A stretch of DNA of 63,799 nt, filler included. It is 11 parts of 11 records of this genome, joined end to end, with 100 filler letters (N's around TTAATTAATTAA, not from the genome) between each part and the next. Parts side by side here need not be neighbours in the genome. Positions count along the whole stretch, not along the records: positions 12,430 to 19,148 come from SRR15195285_3229; 10 more parts are not named here. The stretch is one strand, 5' to 3'. A program made the position numbers and the translations under genes. The notes under the pieces are model-generated. The model made no database searches and was not told the origin of the DNA. It worked only from the letters and a program-made list of their open reading frames with translations. This document shows positions 12,430 through 22,200 of the stretch, in pieces (the stretch's first letter is position 1; each line of letters opens with the position of its first letter).

Positions 12430-12513
12430 CTCTGCTGACCGTTGAGGCGGCGCGGCGTGCGGCGTTGAGGCGGCACGTTCCCCCGCTGTCCAACCAGGCG
12501 TGCAGCTCTGGTG

Positions 12514-15459
12514 ATGCCGACGGATGACCACGTGAAGGTCGGGGTGCGCATCAAGCCGTGCGACGGGCCCTCGAGTTGCGAGGGGGACACGCTGCACAAT
12601 AAGGTGGTGCTGGCGCGCTCGGCGCACGGAGCCGCGCGGCGCTACACGTTCGACCATGTGTTCGACGAGCAGGCGACGAATGCGGAGCTGTATGAGTCCG
12701 TCGGCGCCCCACTGCTCCGCTCGGCATTGGACGGCTACAATGCAACGCTGCTCGCTTACGGCCAGACTGGCGCGGGTAAGACCCACACGATCATGGGCCA
12801 GGGCCGAGAAGACCCTGGTGTCGTGATGCGCCTGGTCTCGCAGTTGTTTCACGCCGCCGACAAGCAAGGCAAGCACATTCAGTTCTCGATGCTAGAGATA
12901 TACAACGAGCGCATACGCGACCTCTTCAGCGTCCGCCGCACAAGTACTGAGAGCCTCAGAATCCGCGAGGACCCGGCGACAGGCCCTTTCGTTGAGAATC
13001 TTTCGTGGTTCGTCGCGGAGGACCGGGAGGCGATGCAAGAGCTGCTGAGCATCGGCGCGGAGGCGAGGACCGTGCGCTCCACGCACAACAATCAGCATAG
13101 CTCACGCGCTCACACTGTCGTGCAGATTGCGATTACAACACTTCAATCTAGTGAGCAGTCCAATAGCACTGGGAGCAGCATGATTTGTGTTGTGGACCTG
13201 GCCGGAAGCGAGCGTCACGACGCGTCCGGCACGGTGGCTTCTGTGGGCCCCAAAACGCTGCGCGAAGGCTGCTCGATCAACAAATCGCTCACAAACCTCG
13301 GCCTCTGCATTTCAGCTTTAGTTGCTGCAGGCCCTGGTGGTGCCGGGCGTGGAGGAAACCAGTCTCCTCGACGCTTGGCTGCCCTCGGCCTGTCGCCAAG
13401 TGCGCTCCGAACAGGCGGCCAGCGCTCGGGGAAGAGCCACATTCCCTATAGGAACTCAGCCCTGACATGGCTGCTCCGCGAGTCGATTGGTGGAAACTCA
13501 AAGACGGCCATTTTGGCGTGTGTCAACCCGGAACCTCGCCATCGCGAGGAATCGCTGTCGACGCTGCGTTTTGCTGACCGTGCTAAGCAGCTCACTACGC
13601 GCGTTGACCGCAACGTAAACATGAAGGCAAGCGTATCAAGGGCAGCACGTAGGGACCGCATCCTGCGAGAGCACGGGGTGTTTGCTGTCGGCAGTGACGC
13701 GCAGGCTACTATAGATGCCCTGCGAGAGGAAGTTCGCCGGTTAGAGTCAACACTCCAGGCACACGGTGCCGACAGTGGGCAAGGACCTCCATGCCTGGTC
13801 CCAGGGGGATTGATAACCACCGTAAATGGCCGCAGAGTCGAAGGTTCGGCCGACAGACCGGTTGCGTTCAAACACGGCGATCGCGTGACTGTGTGGGATC
13901 CAGCATCGCAACAGGAGCACGCGTTCCTTCATCTAAACTCGACCGAAGCACCAAAGGAACGGCTTGCCGATGGACGCACACCACAACCGGTAGTTGCTGC
14001 AGCCAGCGAAGAAGAACAGAACCAAGAGACAGCACATGCTGAGGCTGAGCATGCAGCAGCCACGCTCGGTTTGGACAGTTCTATGGTGTCCTTCCTTGAA
14101 GCAGAAGAAATGGCTTATGAATCTCGGTCACGGCGCCTTTCATTAGACTCTTCGCTGCCGACGGTGCTCGATAGGCCTCCTCTTGACCAGGCTGGGCAGC
14201 GATCCAGCCCAGAAGTCTCGGAGCAGGGGGGGTCGACCTCTCAACCAGGCTTGGGAGAACGGAACAATTACATGGACTCACTGCATCGTCACAAGAAGAG
14301 ACAACGCCGACGGAGCCGTATGGCACTCAAAACCTCCGCAGTCGCTTGTGGTGGCAGAAGCATCCCATCACGGGTACCGGGAGAAGAGCGGGGCCCGGCA
14401 TCACGCTATGATGCACTGATCAAATGCAGCTCTAGCTGGGCACCGTGTGCTGTCTTCATATTGGGCTGTGCTGCCGCTGCCTTTTTTCCGTCGACTGTCC
14501 AAAATGAAGAGCCACGGCTAGCTAAAGGCGAGTTTAGCGTCGACGCTACGGGAACAGGTTCGCAGATGCAGCAGCCTATGTCTCCAATGCAACCTACTAC
14601 CAGCAGCACCATATTTGACTGGGCCCCGAGTGTTATAGGTGTTCTCGGATGGACGATGCTAGTTTACATGATCTTAGGGCGATGGCGCCGGTGGCTCGCA
14701 TCACAGACGCCGCAGTTGGACAAGCGTCCTCGGCAGAGAAGTGCAACGAAATTGAGGGAGCCGTACACAGAGAAAAAGTTTGTCGGCAACTCAGAGAAGA
14801 TGCAGAAGCGTAGCCATCAACGGCGGTGCGATGCGGGCAGAGCTTCGACAGACAGACATACTGACGATACAGAACGACACTTGCGCCGCCGGCAGAGGCA
14901 TCAGCGTGAGCTCAATGAGCGTGACAGAGCAACGACCTCCATCGACCAGGACCGACGACAAGATAGGAGACGACAGAAAGAGCCTGCGTACCGTAGTTCT
15001 GAGTCAGGTGCACGGACGACTGATCACAGGCAGCAACGGCAGCTCAATGGAGAAGTGGTCGCTAGCCATGTCGGCAAAGATCAGAGGCGCGGCCAATACG
15101 GTCGCAACTATTCTACAGCTGGCGGAAAGGCGTTGCAGGACAAGACTAACACGGCAACTCGAGATCATGGGGACACTATACCACCGGTGGTATACCGGCC
15201 AGGAAATGCACACTGCGATGAAGAAAAGGATCGTTGCGGACAGCGGCGAAGGGAGCATGTGGGCGGCAAACATCAGCACGGACAGCGACTCGATGAGCCA
15301 CTGCGGGACTCACAACAGAGGCAGCGTGGGCTATCCGAGCCCCACAGATCTCAGCCACACCGCCACCAAGCGATGGCACACAATCATGATAAGCCAGCAA
15401 AGCCACCTCGAAGTGCTGAGGCATGGCAAGAGCAATGCTGTGACGCGCTTGCTGTGTGA
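12514..15459 (+). CDS. Kinesin motor protein (kinesin-3-like) with partial FHA-like segment and two C-terminal hydrophobic segments
   Basis: VKVGVRIKP, YTFDHVF, P-loop AYGQTGAGKT, EIYNE.IRDL, NQHSSRAH, VDLAGSER, INKSL and HIPYRNSALTWLLRESIGGNSKT. TTVNGRRV...KHGDRV resembles the C-terminal half of an FHA domain. Confidence 0.93.
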   Translation: MPTDDHVKVGVRIKPCDGPSSCEGDTLHNKVVLARSAHGAARRYTFDHVFDEQATNAELYESVGAPLLRSALDGYNATLLAYGQTGAGKTHTIMGQGREDPGVVMRLVSQLFHAADKQGKHIQFSMLEIYNERIRDLFSVRRTSTESLRIREDPATGPFVENLSWFVAEDREAMQELLSIGAEARTVRSTHNNQHSSRAHTVVQIAITTLQSSEQSNSTGSSMICVVDLAGSERHDASGTVASVGPKTLREGCSINKSLTNLGLCISALVAAGPGGAGRGGNQSPRRLAALGLSPSALRTGGQRSGKSHIPYRNSALTWLLRESIGGNSKTAILACVNPEPRHREESLSTLRFADRAKQLTTRVDRNVNMKASVSRAARRDRILREHGVFAVGSDAQATIDALREEVRRLESTLQAHGADSGQGPPCLVPGGLITTVNGRRVEGSADRPVAFKHGDRVTVWDPASQQEHAFLHLNSTEAPKERLADGRTPQPVVAAASEEEQNQETAHAEAEHAAATLGLDSSMVSFLEAEEMAYESRSRRLSLDSSLPTVLDRPPLDQAGQRSSPEVSEQGGSTSQPGLGERNNYMDSLHRHKKRQRRRSRMALKTSAVACGGRSIPSRVPGEERGPASRYDALIKCSSSWAPCAVFILGCAAAAFFPSTVQNEEPRLAKGEFSVDATGTGSQMQQPMSPMQPTTSSTIFDWAPSVIGVLGWTMLVYMILGRWRRWLASQTPQLDKRPRQRSATKLREPYTEKKFVGNSEKMQKRSHQRRCDAGRASTDRHTDDTERHLRRRQRHQRELNERDRATTSIDQDRRQDRRRQKEPAYRSSESGARTTDHRQQRQLNGEVVASHVGKDQRRGQYGRNYSTAGGKALQDKTNTATRDHGDTIPPVVYRPGNAHCDEEKDRCGQRRREHVGGKHQHGQRLDEPLRDSQQRQRGLSEPHRSQPHRHQAMAHNHDKPAKPPRSAEAWQEQCCDALAV

Positions 15460-15623
15460 TGGCGACCCACACAATAGAGCACTGCATGCTCGTAATTCAT
15501 AGCAGTTGCGTTCCCTGTCTGATCTCGTCTTCGTGTCCCCTCAAACCTTGCCCTCTAAAGGTCTGCTACATACAGCTTCAATCCATCTGCCCATTGCAGT
15601 TCCTAGTTGCCATCCAGCACATG

Positions 15624-18600
15624 CTACCGCAAAGACCAAGGCTGCGGTACTGCACGACCCCATACTCCGTGTTTAGGGTGTATCCGCTTTTTCTTGGCCC
15701 ATTGAGCGTACCAGCGCGCCATCTTTGCGTTTGCATCACCCACTGCTGCATCATGTGCAGCTTCATCGTCCGTTGACAGCGACGCTGTAGACGCGCCTGG
15801 ATACCATCCAGCTACTTGCACAGCAGTAGACACCTCGTCAATGCATGCAGCTAACACTACCGGCCGCGGAGCAAGTGCCCCCACACCAGCAATTCGGCGG
15901 CGCTCTCTTTCTTGTAGCTCGAGGTGCAGATCTGCTCGCGCTGCATCCATTCTCGCATCTAAGTTATCACGTGTGACGTCGTACATAGCCCCATCGGCAG
16001 AACTCCATTCTCGTATTCCCACTGCATCATCCAACTGGCTCCATGTTCGCTTGGTCGGCTGCCGCGCACCACCACCAGCATCGACACCAGTGTTGCCTGC
16101 TCTTTGGGCGCCTGTGACTCGGTTGCTGTGATCATCTGTCGCATGTGACTTAGCAGGGTTGAGCTCACCTGATCTGAGGTGGCCGTCCCGCGCCAGCTGT
16201 AGTCGAATATCAATGTATGGGAAGTCTTGATCGACCAGTCGCTCGCGGATCAGCTTCATACTACTGATGTCGCCGCCATCCGCTTGCACACTGTCCACTG
16301 CGGCACGGACAGCTTTTACATCCTCGGACCGCAGACGCGGTAGCCGGTCGAACTCTAGAGGCCACCCATTCATGTACACATCGAGTAGGTAGCCGATAAC
16401 GGTGTCAGTCTTGACCGTCTTTGCACTGGCAACCTCATCAACCGAAAGCCCAGCTTCTGTGAACATTCGGTACGCCTCTTGCTTCGTGGGCCCGATCTTC
16501 GGCAGTGTTCGAGCAACAGTCTTTGGTTCTGGGGGCGCCAGATTGCGATCGTGCAATCCTCGCCTAGCACAAAACGACTCTATGACGTCGAACAGCTGCT
16601 GTCCATACTTAGCCAGTCTCTCCTCGCCTACTCCATCAATCTCACCTAGCTTTTCAACCGTAGACGGACGATATTTCGCAAATCTATGCAAGGTCTCCTC
16701 ACCACATACAATGTAAGGAGCAATCTCCGCCGCTTTCGCAAGGTCATCGCGCTCCAGCTTCAACTCCTTGAAAAGGGCATCCTCGTGCCTTGCCCTTGCG
16801 TTCGATACCCTTGCTGTCTGCACACGATCTGAGAATCCCTTTGTGCCACCAATCGCTGTGTTTGCACGAGGGTTCGACCAGCCGTACAGGTGCTTGTCCA
16901 ATGCCGCTGCAACATCTGCCGGTAGACCTGACATCGCAGTGCCTGGTAGCTTCATCGCCGGGTCTTTAAGCAGCTGCTCGCCCTTTAGCCCAATCGCATA
17001 TGTGACAAATGGTCTAATGTTGGACCCATACCCAACTCCTGCCATTGACGCGTTCCGCTTTAGTACGTTGTCTCCTACGAGGACCTGGGCTAAGCCTTTC
17101 CAAAACACTGCTGGGAGTTCTTTGCCCTTGCCAAATATTGGAAATTTGGTCAGCTTTGCCATGCCGAACCGGTCCACGAGTCCCGTGGCGCGTGAACCTC
17201 GCAGAACGTCCACTGGAACGTTCAGTCCGTATCTCTGTCCAGTCTGTTGAATTGCGGCCAAGAGTTGTCGCACATACGGCGTCAAATCAATCAGCTCTGA
17301 AGCTGCGCCCGTCTCGGTGCACACACGACGACAGCAGTTGTCACAACGTGAGCCACACGGTGTCACGTGGGCTTCCCCGAAATGCTCACACAGTAACCCG
17401 TGGCGACATGAAGCAGAGTTGTTGAGGTAAGATTCCAGCTGTTGACGGGAAATCATGAATTGCTGTTTTGTACTTTCCTCGGACATATCTCGCAAGTAGA
17501 AGTCAAACAAAGCCAAGTCCGCACGTGACCAGAACAAGGTACAGCTTGCTAAGCCACCATCACGGCCCGCTCGACCGCTTTCTTGGTAGTATGCTTCGAG
17601 CGTCTTCGGCGGACCGTAGTGGATGATCTGCCGTACGTCCGGCTTGTCGATCCCCAGGCCATAGGCAACTGTGGCGACGACGACTGGAGATTGATCGCGC
17701 ATGAAAGCAGCATGTGCCTTTTCCCGCGCAGAGTTGCGCATGGAACCATTGTAACCGACAGCATTGACTTTGCGAAGGAGCAAGAACTTCAGAACCTTAT
17801 CGGCAAGTTTCACTGTTGGCACATAGATGATCGTGGCGCCTTCGTTGCAACCAGCACCTGTGAGCAGCGGGAGCAGGTCGGTTTCCATTTGATCTTTCAT
17901 TTGAACCGAATACGATAGATTTGGCCGCGCAAAGGAGGTTAGCGTAACCTCGGCGGAGCTCATTGCGAGCTGCCTACAGATGTCCGCACGCACGTCACAT
18001 GTCGCCGTCGCTGTTAGTGCCATGCGAGGAACGTTCGCGAGGTGTGTGGACAAAGTTGGGCCGATCTGTCTGTACGCTGGACGGAAGTCGTGACCCCATT
18101 CCGACACACAGTGCGCCTCATCCACCGCTACGAGAACAATATGTGATGTCCCACCCCGACGATGCAGTCGTGCCAGCCGCTCCGCGAAGGATATCAACTT
18201 TTCTGGGGTGAGATAGACAAGCTCATACTCTCCAGCTGCGACACGGTCGTCGACTGTGGTATCGGTCTGCGCGGAGCCGAGAAAGCAGGCCCGAACACCC
18301 ATCGCACGCATCTTTTCCACCTGATCGTGCATGAGCGAGATGAGCGGCGACACGATGATTGCACAGCCGAGCCCGAGCAGTCCCGGTAATTGGTAGCAAA
18401 TGCTCTTGCCTGCACCCGTGGCCATCACCACCAGATGGTCGCGCCCCTCGAGCACTCCACGAACCACACGCTCCTGCTCAGGACGGAAGTGGCGATAGCC
18501 GAGACGCCGCTGCATCACCGCAAGCACATCCTCTTTTGTTGCAGCGAGCGGCGAGCGCCGCGCTGTTTGGCAAGGGCCGCACGGGTTTCCCGCGGCAGAG

Positions 18601-18973
18601 TCCCGGTACGCAGTGATTGCGGAGCGCAGCGCATCGTTCGGACGGAGGGCTTTAGACGCGAGCGGCACACGCGTGGTCGGGCTGACCGTGTCGGAAAGCA
18701 TCCATCGCTGCGCCGAACGTGCATGGAACACCGAATCGTAGAGCCACGGCACACACACACGCACAGCGTGTGAGCGAGCAGGCGAGTCGCGCACTGCAGC
18801 ACCAAAGAGGCGTGCGAGCGGAGAGGGGCTCGGGGCGTCACCTCGATAGCAGCACGCTCGTAGTTGACGCCGTCGCTTGCCAACACGGGGTCAGCCATCA
18901 GCGTCTTCCCGATCGGGCAGAGGAACACCGCGGGCGGTGCTTGCCCAACGACACCTGCTGGCTCGCCAGGCAT
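15624..18973 (-). CDS. U-box fused RecQ-family DNA helicase (RQC, HRDC, HTH)
   Basis: Intron 18708-18841 joins the U-box FLCPIGKTLMADPVLASDGVNYERAAIE|RWMLSDTVSPTTRVPL..LRPNDALRSAI. RecQ motifs ATGAGKS, VDEAHCVSEWGHDFRPAY, TATA and YYQESGRAGRDG. Also a Zn CR..C..CDNC motif, an HRDC domain and a C-terminal HTH. True start is uncertain. Confidence 0.92.
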
Positions 18974-19148
18974 CGCCCACCACGGTACGCTGAAGCCCGC
19001 ACGCCGCACGCACTGCCAGCACGGGCGCAGCAGCTAGCCCGGCGGCCCCTCGCGCATCACTGAGGCGGTCAAGCAGTACGACCTGCTAGTCCACTGGACA
19101 GCTCCAGCGCCCGCTGCGGCTCCAGCTCCAGCTCCAGCTCCAGCTCCA

Positions 19149-19248
19149 NNNNNNNNNNNNNNNNNNNNNNNNNNNNNNNNNNNNNNNNNNNNTTAATTAA
19201 TTAANNNNNNNNNNNNNNNNNNNNNNNNNNNNNNNNNNNNNNNNNNNN
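19149..19248. other. Artificial contig linker
   Basis: N44-TTAATTAATTAA-N44. Confidence 0.98.
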
Positions 19249-22200
19249 GCTGCTGCTGCTGCTGCTGCTGCTGAGTCGCAGGAGCGGCGGGCCGCGAAAC
19301 TTCAGAGCGTCGAGCGGACGCACGCGGCGACGGTGGGCAGGCTGGAGGAGCTCGAAGCGTCCGCGTTCCCATCGTCGCTCGCGCAGGGCCGCGCGCTTGC
19401 AGTGGCGCGGCTCTGCAAAGATGCGGCGCTCAAGGACGGCGGCATCATTGGGGAGGGCGGCAATCCGGTGGCCTACGAGGAGGTGGTGGCAGCAGCGCAG
19501 CAGTTGGTTGTGGATTTCCCGGAATGGGATGAGGCGCACCACCAGCTTGGCTGCACTCTCGTCGGCGCGCATAGGTGGGACGAGGCGGTGGAGGCGCACA
19601 CATCCGCTGTCAAGATCAACCCAGAGCATCAGGGGGCACGTGCCGCGCTCGCCGCGAAGGAGGAGCTCGATCGCAGGCTGCGGATCGAGGAGATGCAGGA
19701 GCGGCGGCAGCTCTCGCTGGAGCGGGTACATTCTGCGCTTACGCGCCTGCCCGGGCCGGGAGGCTACGCCCGCGGGCAGATGCTGCGTATCTCTAGCCTA
19801 AAGGGCGCTCCGCAACATAACGGCAAGACCGGCCGGTGCCTCTCGTTCAACAGTGCGAAGGGCCGCTGGAACGTGGAGCTGGAGAGTGGCGAGCGCCTCG
19901 CACTCAAGCCAGGCAATGTGTCGTTGGAGCACGACAGCGATGCACCGGCCTCGATATGTGACAACGGGCACGAGATGGACAGAGACGAGCTGGCGTGCGC
20001 AGACACTCCGGAGCGCAGGGCCGCTATCGCAGCCGAGCAGAAAGTTGCCGGCAACGGTGCGTACGGCACAGAAGACTGGGATCGAGCCCTTGAGTGCTAC
20101 GCGAACTCCGTGGCAATGTCAGACAGCAACTGCAAGATCTCTGCCAAGACGTACAGCAATTTGGCTGCGACACTCTGCAAGCTCTCATTGTACGAAGATG
20201 CCCAGGAGTGTGCCGCGCGTAGTACTGACGTAGACCCGTCCTGGGCGAAAGGCTGGTGGCGCCGCGGTGTGGTCGCAACGCTGCTGCGACAAGAAATGCA
20301 AGCAAGTGCTTACTACCGGAAAGCAGTGGAGCTTGATCCAGATTCAGAGGTGTTTCGATCGGCGTTAAAGAAGTGCATGTCGATGGTCCGTTCAGATGTG
20401 CGCTTCATTGACGAGACTGAGGATCCATCGGTTTCAACTGCTGGTGGTGCAGTGAACCCAGGGCGCGGTGTTCACATTCAGGATTCTTATCCGACGACGG
20501 GCCCACCGGCTGCTTGGCGCAATGTTGTGCAGATGGGCTGGAATGCGTGGCATTTGACAAATCAGATCGAGGGCGTCACGCCTATGGATATGCACAGATT
20601 CGATCCGGAGGGCGCCGATTCTTTATCGGTTCAGATTCGTGACTCTGTGACGTCGAACATGTTCTTGATACTCGGATTAAGAGATTTTGCGGAAGGAATG
20701 AAAGGAGGACTTGCCTCGCTCGTGCTGTCGGTCGGCGCATCGTCCACAGCGCCTCAGCCCTGTCGCGAAGCAGTGCAGCAATTTCGAATGATGGAAAGCT
20801 CCGGGCAGCTCGACGACAACCAGCTCAAGGTAGCCGCTAACGAATTGTTGGGAGGGGATCCATACGGCGCTTACGATACCCTCTTTGCCGGCGTCGTGCA
20901 CTTGTGTGGCCAGCACATTTGGATTCAACACCATACAGTCACAGAAACAGATTCAGGGCCGGCACCTGAAAACTGTCTTGCTCCTCCAAACGCATTGTTA
21001 TGTAACATGCCAGGGCAGCAGCCACTTGCATTGTGCTTGCTGGTAGCAAATCGGCACCAGGACTGCAAAAGGACGTTTGGTAGCAAGATGTTGGAGCCGT
21101 GAGCCTTCTGCGTTCCACGTTTGTTTGATTAATTCTCGCTGATACTTGTCCTGAAACCAATGCCCAGACAGACATTGCATTCGAAGCTGATACCACGACG
21201 TGCTGATTTGGCACACGTACAGGGAAGCGATCCAGGCAGCAGTGGAGACGTATATGACGAACGCGGGTGGGCACCGGCAGAAATCTGCGTTCTCAGCGAA
21301 GAAAGTGACGGTCGCTGCAGCTCTGAAATACATCAAGAAGGTGCTCAAATCGGGAATCTCATGGGATGCGGGCGTACGGAAGCTTGTGTCGCTGTACTAC
21401 CGTGGGTCAATCATCTACGCTCTGCTGGTTCGATTTCTTGGCGACGCCAGTGGAGCTTACAAACACATTGCTTGGGCTGTTGAGTTCATCGACGAGGCGG
21501 ACAGGCAGTTCCACGTCACGCGCGACAGCTCTTACGCAGAGAAAGGATCAGCTTTTCAGCCGAGTCTTCGTAGATCGATCATGCTGATGCAGCTTGAGAC
21601 GCACCGGGCCCTCCGTGGTGCCACCTTTGAGCTAGAGCGCGGACCGTTCCCCGTTGTGAGAAACCATGCCCGTTTACTGTCAGTGTGTTGAAAATGTTAG
21701 TTTACCCGGCAAACGTATGTATGCCTCAGGGTAAGGAAGTGGACATCTGTCTGGCCGTTATCAAGTCCACAAGTGAATTTCCACCTCATCGCATGGGTCA
21801 AGCACATGTCATCTCAGATGCAGCATTCCGACGGAAACCACTGGCTACGGCACACTCTTGTCTCGCGTCTCTTTTATCACAGATGCCAGGTCACTTCGTG
21901 GTGCATGGTTCAGCCGGTACAGAGCGGGTGATGATCGGCAATACATTCTTTCATGAGTGGATGTCGGCAAAGGGTTTGTACGAAGACAGCAGAGACTTTC
22001 ACGCAGTCATCACGGAGCATTACCACCGTGCTGCGCATGTGCAGTTGTTGGACGCGGGGGATGCTGCAATCCTCTGGTGGGGATACGGTGGCAACATGGT
22101 TAGATCAAGTGAGCGTGGTGACGGACAACCCGGTGGCTATCGTCTTGGCGAGCTGCGGCATGCGATAGCGATGGCACGAAAGTGTGCAGCACAGCGCGAT

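Follow-up and report, generated by a model that had tools for sequence, protein, structure and literature searches.

Rad5, HLTF and SHPRH act in PCNA polyubiquitylation. Outside the gene described below, RecQ helicases and ubiquitin ligases come together time and again in genome maintenance but, to our knowledge, always as separate proteins or as SNF2-RING fusions. According to a passage in one review, interstrand cross-link processing requires the human PRP19 complex, and this complex interacts with the Werner syndrome helicase, WRN (PMC8869861, citing Zhang et al. 2005); the PRP19-WRN interaction also appears in the citation list of PMC2190700. Here we analyse a stretch of DNA of 63,799 nucleotides (nt), referred to throughout as the window, which consists of 11 parts of 11 records joined end to end with filler letters between them; coordinates count along the whole window. 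In the part that comes from record SRR15195285_3229 (12,430 to 19,148), positions 15624 to 18973 carry a gene in which a U-box, the domain of a class of ubiquitin ligases (E3), is joined to a complete RecQ helicase. With a probability of roughly 0.78, we regard this U-box-RecQ as a genuine gene from the nucleus of an uncultured marine eukaryote, encoding a four-part fusion of 1071 residues with predicted ligase and helicase functions.

The two domains are familiar, and they occur here in an apparently undescribed, conserved combination. The U-box-RecQ architecture was not found in the searchable full-text literature (subscription journals not covered), and no named or described U-box-RecQ protein was present among the best 150 of 13,900 matches drawn from 1.84 billion representative proteins. 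A first-pass annotation of the window, made from the sequence alone, had stated that no characterised U-box-RecQ protein was known to it, and these literature and protein searches turned up neither a characterised nor a named one. The window sequence itself was present in 19 of the 23 listed runs, which come from 14 studies and are all marine or seawater metagenomes.

Gene Structure and Domain Organization

The gene lies on the minus strand. Its start codon, read from the sequence, is an ATG at 18973, and a stop codon is found in frame 5′ of this ATG at 19036-19034. Joining the two exons by script gave a coding sequence of 3216 nt, corresponding to 1071 amino acids (aa) and a stop codon, with the following parts:

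18973-18842, minus strand: exon 1, 132 nt, 44 codons, phase 0; residues 1-44, comprising the start codon and the first U-box half
18841-18708, minus strand: intron, 134 nt, phase 0, with GTGACG at its 5′ end, GCGCAG at its 3′ end and a short (GT)n run inside
18707-15627, minus strand: exon 2, an uninterrupted frame of 1027 codons that runs up to a TAG stop codon at 15626-15624
18600-18707, minus strand: second U-box half, 36 residues at the start of exon 2 (Pfam profile positions 33-69, 18 bits)
18528-18599, minus strand: variable linker of about 24-25 residues between U-box and helicase, marked out by its identity, length variation and model confidence
17556-18482, minus strand: RecQ motor, with Pfam DEAD at 18000-18482 (E = 1e-25) and Helicase_C at 17556-17846 (E = 2.1e-18)
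17331-17519, minus strand: RecQ zinc-binding module, RecQ_Zn_bind (Pfam PF16124, E = 2.1e-8)
17031-17297, minus strand: RQC winged helix (Pfam PF09382, E = 6.7e-13)
16581-16781, minus strand: HRDC domain (Pfam PF00570, E = 1e-15)
16200-16487, minus strand: HTH_40 (Pfam PF14493, E = 1.9e-10)
15624-16199, minus strand: C-terminal tail of about 190 residues without a family match, then the stop codon

All of the sequence features described in the first-pass annotation are present where it had placed them. It had assigned the second half of the U-box to the same exon as the RecQ core, RQC, HRDC and HTH, and a Pfam scan agrees, with the single exon-2 open reading frame (ORF) containing, in order, the U-box second half, DEAD, Helicase_C, RecQ_Zn_bind, RQC, HRDC and HTH_40. 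It had also proposed that removal of the 134-nt GT..AG intron produces a U-box. The match to the U-box family PF04564 was scored exon by exon and not as one spliced chain: exon 1 alone covers profile positions 2-32 (34 bits, E = 3.2e-8, cut-off 21.4), and the first 36 residues of exon 2 cover the remainder up to position 69 (E = 0.0034). The two halves therefore meet at profile positions 32 and 33 and abut with no position lost or doubled. The proposal holds. The U-box begins at residue 14 of the protein, at coordinate 18934.

The Same Fusion in Other Lineages

A scan of metagenome contigs yielded six related loci, two of which (L003 and L004) cover the N-terminus. In both, one unbroken frame leads from a start codon through about 13 residues to a whole U-box and on through the linker into RecQ, as far as the Walker A region; the two U-boxes score 65.4 and 63.3 bits against PF04564 (profile positions 2-68), and an in-frame stop codon is found 5′ of the ATG in L004. 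Both contigs represent genomic DNA rather than cDNA, because they contain two short GT..AG introns, located in L004 at 519-586 (after the Walker A glycines) and at about 965-1053 (before motif III), and likewise in L003. The window is without either of these introns, and L003 and L004 are without the intron that divides the window's U-box. Judged by this comparison, intron positions turn over fast in the U-box-RecQ group. The window has AAIE at the end of exon 1 and RWML at the start of exon 2, where L004 has AAIERWLL within one exon, and a protein alignment made by script between the spliced window protein and L004 is gapless over the exon junction. The 3′ intron ends of the window and of the L003/L004 group share GCGCAG.

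An exhaustive HMMER search with the 141-residue N-terminus of L003 against the 1.84 billion representative proteins returned the 13,900 matches mentioned above, at E ≤ 0.001. The best 150 of these, down to 68.7 bits, were examined, a depth at which distant independent fusions may be missed. A local phmmer search with the RecQ core on the other 149 identified three metagenome proteins without a name (P0127, P0129 and P0136) that hold both U-box and RecQ, and additionally one 49-residue RecQ scrap. Among the 26 of the 150 that were scanned with Pfam, the same three contain U-box and DEAD in one ORF. Five lineages beyond the window's own cluster (L003, L004, P0127, P0129 and P0136) therefore have an unsplit U-box in frame with RecQ, and the 134-nt intron is missing from all five, which read straight through that point. 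P0004 (89% identity, 9 members) and P0005 (80% identity, 10 members) belong to the window's own cluster; they come from separate metagenome assemblies, and in each of them a single ORF covers the second half of the U-box, the linker and RecQ. The earlier claim that the fusion is not an artefact of gene prediction is thus strengthened by five further lineages in which the U-box and the start of RecQ share an unbroken ORF.

A search for longer relatives gave 12 matches, comprising three members of the window's clade and nine U-box proteins with other partners. In the ESM Atlas, P0136 retrieved only plain RecQ/DEAD clusters (scores 0.89-0.91).

Among the best 150 matches, the nearest U-boxes sit in unusual metagenome proteins (P0193, P0217, P0124-P0126 and P0138). 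The U-box is combined with a dynamin GTPase in P0193 (1176 aa) and P0217, and chains with two to seven U-box stretches are also found among these nearest metagenome proteins, with seven matched stretches in P0138. Shuffling of the U-box may be frequent in the window's or neighbouring lineages.

Conservation and Predicted Fold of the U-box

When the U-box codons of the window were compared with those of L004, the ratio of nonsynonymous to synonymous substitution rates (dN/dS) was 0.26 at a dS of 0.84, with values of 0.24 for the exon-1 half and 0.26 for the exon-2 half. By this measure the U-box is under purifying selection. The exon-2 half of the U-box is 89% identical to that of P0004 and 86% identical to that of P0005, compared with 94% and 93% for the helicase and only 62% and 46% for the linker. 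In these alignments, then, the U-box half is conserved like the helicase domains and unlike the linker, the length of which differs between lineages.

The fold was modelled with AlphaFold2 for the relative P0136, from a 60-row alignment and with a mean predicted local distance difference test (pLDDT) score of 82.1. Over residues 21-80, which make up most of the U-box, 10-residue blocks have mean pLDDT values of 90-98, and the strands and central helix occur in the order expected of a U-box fold. Confidence drops in the linker, to means of 57 and 71 for its 10-residue blocks and to less than 50 at residues 99-103. A comparison of the L003 U-box with solved structures gave matches to the U-boxes of Legionella LubX, plant PUB12/13-type proteins, AtPUB14, CHIP and UBE4A/B (24 sequences at E ≤ 0.001). 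Inspection of the alignment by eye indicates that a Cys-Pro-Ile/Leu turn, an Asp-Pro-Val, a Pro-x-Thr loop and a Pro-Asn are kept across lineages. These elements are typical of U-boxes that bind a ubiquitin-conjugating enzyme (E2). It is fairly likely that the U-box binds a charged E2, which would make the protein an E3 ligase.

Type and Descent of the Helicase

The protein scores 446.7 bits against the RecQ family model TIGR00614 (recQ_fam, NCBIfam), for which the cut-off is 219.8 bits, and falls below the cut-off of the bacterial RecQ equivalog TIGR01389 (503 versus 640.2 bits). Pfam DEAD, Helicase_C, RecQ_Zn_bind and RQC are all over their cut-offs. Reading the translation by eye, with the usual motif definitions, we recognise motif 0, the Walker A and DEAH motifs, an arginine-finger motif and four zinc cysteines. 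Because the motor motifs look intact, the RecQ part very likely unwinds DNA in the 3′-5′ direction.

The best match among solved structures is human WRN, at 374 bits for the full chain (in two stretches) and 343.5 bits for a helicase-RQC construct, followed by bacterial RecQ (300-304 bits), BLM (255), RECQ1 (253), RECQ5 (227) and RECQ4 (181); this closeness to WRN is a ranking among solved structures and not a phylogeny with named references. With the P0136 model as query, each of the first 25 Foldseek matches is to WRN helicase. The helicase is thus WRN-like in both sequence and predicted fold. No exonuclease family was matched by either exon at E ≤ 1 in Pfam, and by the exonuclease criterion the protein is therefore not a WRN orthologue. 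The U-box occupies the N-terminal accessory position, where WRN has its exonuclease.

The combination of RQC, HRDC and HTH_40 is also found in the streptophytes Chlorokybus and Riccia, in a Lingula protein named WRN by NCBI, and in many bacterial RecQs. These streptophyte, Lingula and bacterial relatives are the next best database matches, with only 30-43% identity, and PF04564 occurs in none of the 120 database matches listed. A quick maximum-likelihood tree was built from 36 rows chosen among those matches; P0129, L003 and L004, which were too short or had a broken frame, were left out. In this tree the five fusion rows form one clade (93 in the Shimodaira-Hasegawa-like approximate likelihood ratio test, SH-aLRT; 96 for four of them). 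The bacterial rows (SH-aLRT 100), the streptophyte rows (97) and the two Lingula rows all fall outside it, and the tree gives no firm order for the deeper branches. The fusion proteins are monophyletic on this evidence.

The C-terminal tail matches no Pfam family at E ≤ 0.01; a match to the PE family (E = 0.03-0.21) was taken as chance. Its last ~97 residues (15627-15917) are 91% identical to P0004 and 76% identical to P0005, compared with 73% and 55% for the preceding 94 residues, and the tail is retained in L001. Within the last ~97 residues there is a basic patch, KKKR, and the end is rich in Trp. The conserved end of the tail may be a nuclear-localisation or partner-binding module.

Alternative Explanations

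Several observations weigh against an intact, active fusion. Contigs from three RNA runs and one DNA run were mapped to the window, and no spliced joint at 18708/18841 was found in the contigs of these four runs. Two RNA-library contigs run through the intron unspliced, namely X14 (record 16; 18690-19076, depth 13.8) and X15 (record 24; 18569-18881, depth 3.65), and the RNA check of the gene model suggested in the first-pass annotation has accordingly not shown the splice. An unspliced window message shifts frame and terminates at 18515, so RecQ would need to start at an internal Met, as it does in the database gene call P0003. A block of N at 19149-19248, 175 nt upstream of the ATG, hides the 5′ end of the transcript, and outside the window's cluster the fusion is seen only in fragments of 141-378 residues. 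Within the U-box, relatives have Leu at the position of the window's Ile in the Cys-Pro-Ile turn, and P0129 has a two-residue insertion at this turn and is without the Trp after the central helix; some fusion members, by these changes, may not be active as E3.

The unspliced contigs would be expected if the U-box were split and dead in the window species, with the insert retained and a plain RecQ made from an internal Met, preceded by a vestigial half U-box. The gene calls P0003, P0004 and P0005 all begin at an internal Met, as this explanation would have it. We nevertheless consider it quite improbable. RNA libraries may contain DNA and contigs lose rare forms, and the unspliced contigs may be DNA carry-over or pre-mRNA, which neither prove retention nor support splicing; the callers behind P0003-P0005, in our own reading, appear not to model introns. 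In addition, exon 1 is under purifying selection (the dN/dS of 0.24 given above), it exceeds the Pfam threshold alone, and the canonical GT..AG, in phase 0, restores the profile exactly between positions 32 and 33. The environmental differences that could be located spare exon 1 and fall in the insert. In X15, all five of the five substitutions lie inside the intron. In X14, seven located substitutions do so, out of 10 counted (up to three are without a location). Common to both contigs is a 2-nt deletion at 18750, within the (GT)n run of the intron (18750-18760), and no difference is listed in exon 1 for either contig. This is the expected pattern for what would be a non-coding insert between constrained exons. 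We think it very probable that the intron is spliced in the window species.

An assembly chimera at the joint between U-box and RecQ is an explanation to which we give next to no probability. No support for it was found, and the N block lies outside the gene; against it, the second U-box half and RecQ are in one ORF, a contig from the DNA run (record 7) covers 18264-18756, and the same joint is present in other assemblies (P0004, P0005, L003, L004, P0127, P0129 and P0136). The first-pass annotation had named a chimeric misassembly near 18560-18610 as the finding that would overturn its reading, and this case is excluded by the spanning DNA-run contig together with the independent assemblies. 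A different view accepts the fusion as real and takes the U-box as a protein-binding or dimerisation module, or as a device that only marks the protein itself for turnover through auto-ubiquitylation, rather than as a substrate-directed ligase. The analysis itself yielded nothing positive for this view. In its favour, dimers are formed by some U-boxes (CHIP, PRP19), oligomers of RecQ proteins are often held together through their N-termini, and the human RecQ helicases are known targets of ubiquitylation. Passages of one article mention the ubiquitination of RECQL4 by DDB1-CUL4A (PMC7947261). However, residues of the E2-binding type are kept across lineages, with which self-modification is still compatible, and the closest solved U-boxes are active E3s. 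We regard the absence of a substrate-directed function as rather unlikely, and prefer the reading in which a spliced gene encodes a complete U-box, with a predicted ligase function, on a WRN-like RecQ helicase.

The Insert and the Genomic Neighbourhood

Both frames are open through the intron, and a 132-nt variant would keep the frame if it were retained. The idea that the intron is an introner was rejected: neither the window nor L001-L006 contains it a second time, and the best of the other matches is 11-18 nt long. Over 18025-18149, which spans DEAH and the next motif, contig depth rises to 58-92 in all three deeper runs. Depth in this interval is uninformative on the U-box-RecQ gene, because contigs of other organisms pile up on conserved helicase words. 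The only joint listed for the mapped contigs, from 18128 to 18330 in the DNA run and with 26 letters on the shorter side, lies in the most conserved helicase motifs and was taken as DNA of other organisms.

The G+C content of the window is 50-62%. An open frame of 996 codons on the plus strand (12469-15459), in which motifs of a kinesin motor were recognised by eye, runs towards the RecQ gene from the opposite side. The genome appears very compact, because just 164 nt separate the kinesin-like and RecQ stop codons. A search with a PUF-repeat ORF found relatives with 74-91% identity only in metagenomes, and the remaining matches, at ≤44% identity, are scattered over red algae, mosses, fungi and amoebae. 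The N block at 19149-19248 consists of 44 N, TTAATTAATTAA and a further 44 N, was read as a scaffold gap, and is flanked by runs of a hexanucleotide, (GGAGCT)n, and a trinucleotide, (CAG/GCT)n. A divergent ORF with tetratricopeptide (TPR) repeats (19252-21102, plus strand) begins at or within this block, and the shared promoter region is therefore incomplete.

Proposed Function

The RQC, HRDC and HTH_40 domains would place the enzyme on forked, G-quadruplex (G4) or Holliday-like DNA. There, the RecQ part would bind and unwind branched or G4 DNA, and the tethered U-box would recruit E2~ubiquitin, with either neighbouring proteins on that DNA or the helicase molecule as the acceptor. In this way unwinding could be coupled to local ubiquitin signalling or turnover. 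The idea of the first-pass annotation, that targets at stalled forks or G4 structures are ubiquitylated, is pure inference. The fusion could also be read as a "Rosetta stone," in which a U-box ligase works as a single functional unit with a WRN-type helicase and the protein is a RecQ counterpart of Rad5/HLTF, ubiquitylating RPA, PCNA or other fork proteins at stalled forks, cross-links and G4; we offer this as a tentative and still doubtful proposal. If it were true, separate U-box ligases elsewhere, for example PRP19, would be predicted to act on or with WRN likewise.

The conserved union of a U-box with a WRN-type RecQ could serve as a compact model for the coupling of ubiquitin signalling to DNA unwinding, and it may hint at which U-box proteins partner the WRN-like helicases of other eukaryotes. 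It would also add a domain architecture from a eukaryotic lineage that is without an annotated genome in the collections searched.

Comparison with Known Systems

The domain family PF04564, against which the L003 and L004 U-boxes score 63-65 bits, is common to the fusion and to plant PUB proteins, CHIP and UBE4. In the latter proteins it is combined with ARM, TPR, kinase or Ufd2 core domains, and none of them carries a helicase. Plant RECQsim resembles the window protein as a RecQ with a domain of the ubiquitin system, since the Linum RECQsim carries a UBA (PF00627). The UBA binds ubiquitin and is no ligase, whereas the window protein is without a UBA match, and RECQsim is the most distant row in the tree, with an end branch of 3.76.

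In the case of PRP19/Pso4 and WRN, a U-box ligase likewise acts together with a WRN-type helicase. Human PRP19 and WRN are, however, separate proteins bridged by other subunits. Moreover, the window protein is without the WD40 and coiled coil of PRP19, and its nearest solved U-boxes are those of LubX and the plant PUB types.

WRN itself has the helicase core nearest to that of the fusion by sequence and, through P0136, by fold, and both proteins have an accessory enzymatic domain at the N-terminus; the fusion shares its set of RQC, HRDC and HTH_40 with the Lingula protein named WRN by NCBI. The N-terminus of WRN is a DEDD 3′-5′ exonuclease, whereas that of the window protein is a U-box. Further differences are the conserved, family-less tail of the window protein and the position of the fusion clade apart from the Lingula WRN row.

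Pfam gave no SNF2 or RING match for the window protein, which is not a member of the Rad5/HLTF/SHPRH group, because it has neither the SNF2 ATPase nor the RING. In those proteins the motor is an SNF2-family translocase and a zinc RING is embedded inside the ATPase, whereas in the window protein the motor is a RecQ and a zinc-free U-box is tethered N-terminally. What they share is a superfamily 2 (SF2) DNA motor and an E2-recruiting domain of the RING class, a predicted one in the window protein, in one polypeptide, and in this respect Rad5, HLTF and SHPRH would be the obvious nearest functional analogy to the U-box-RecQ fusion.

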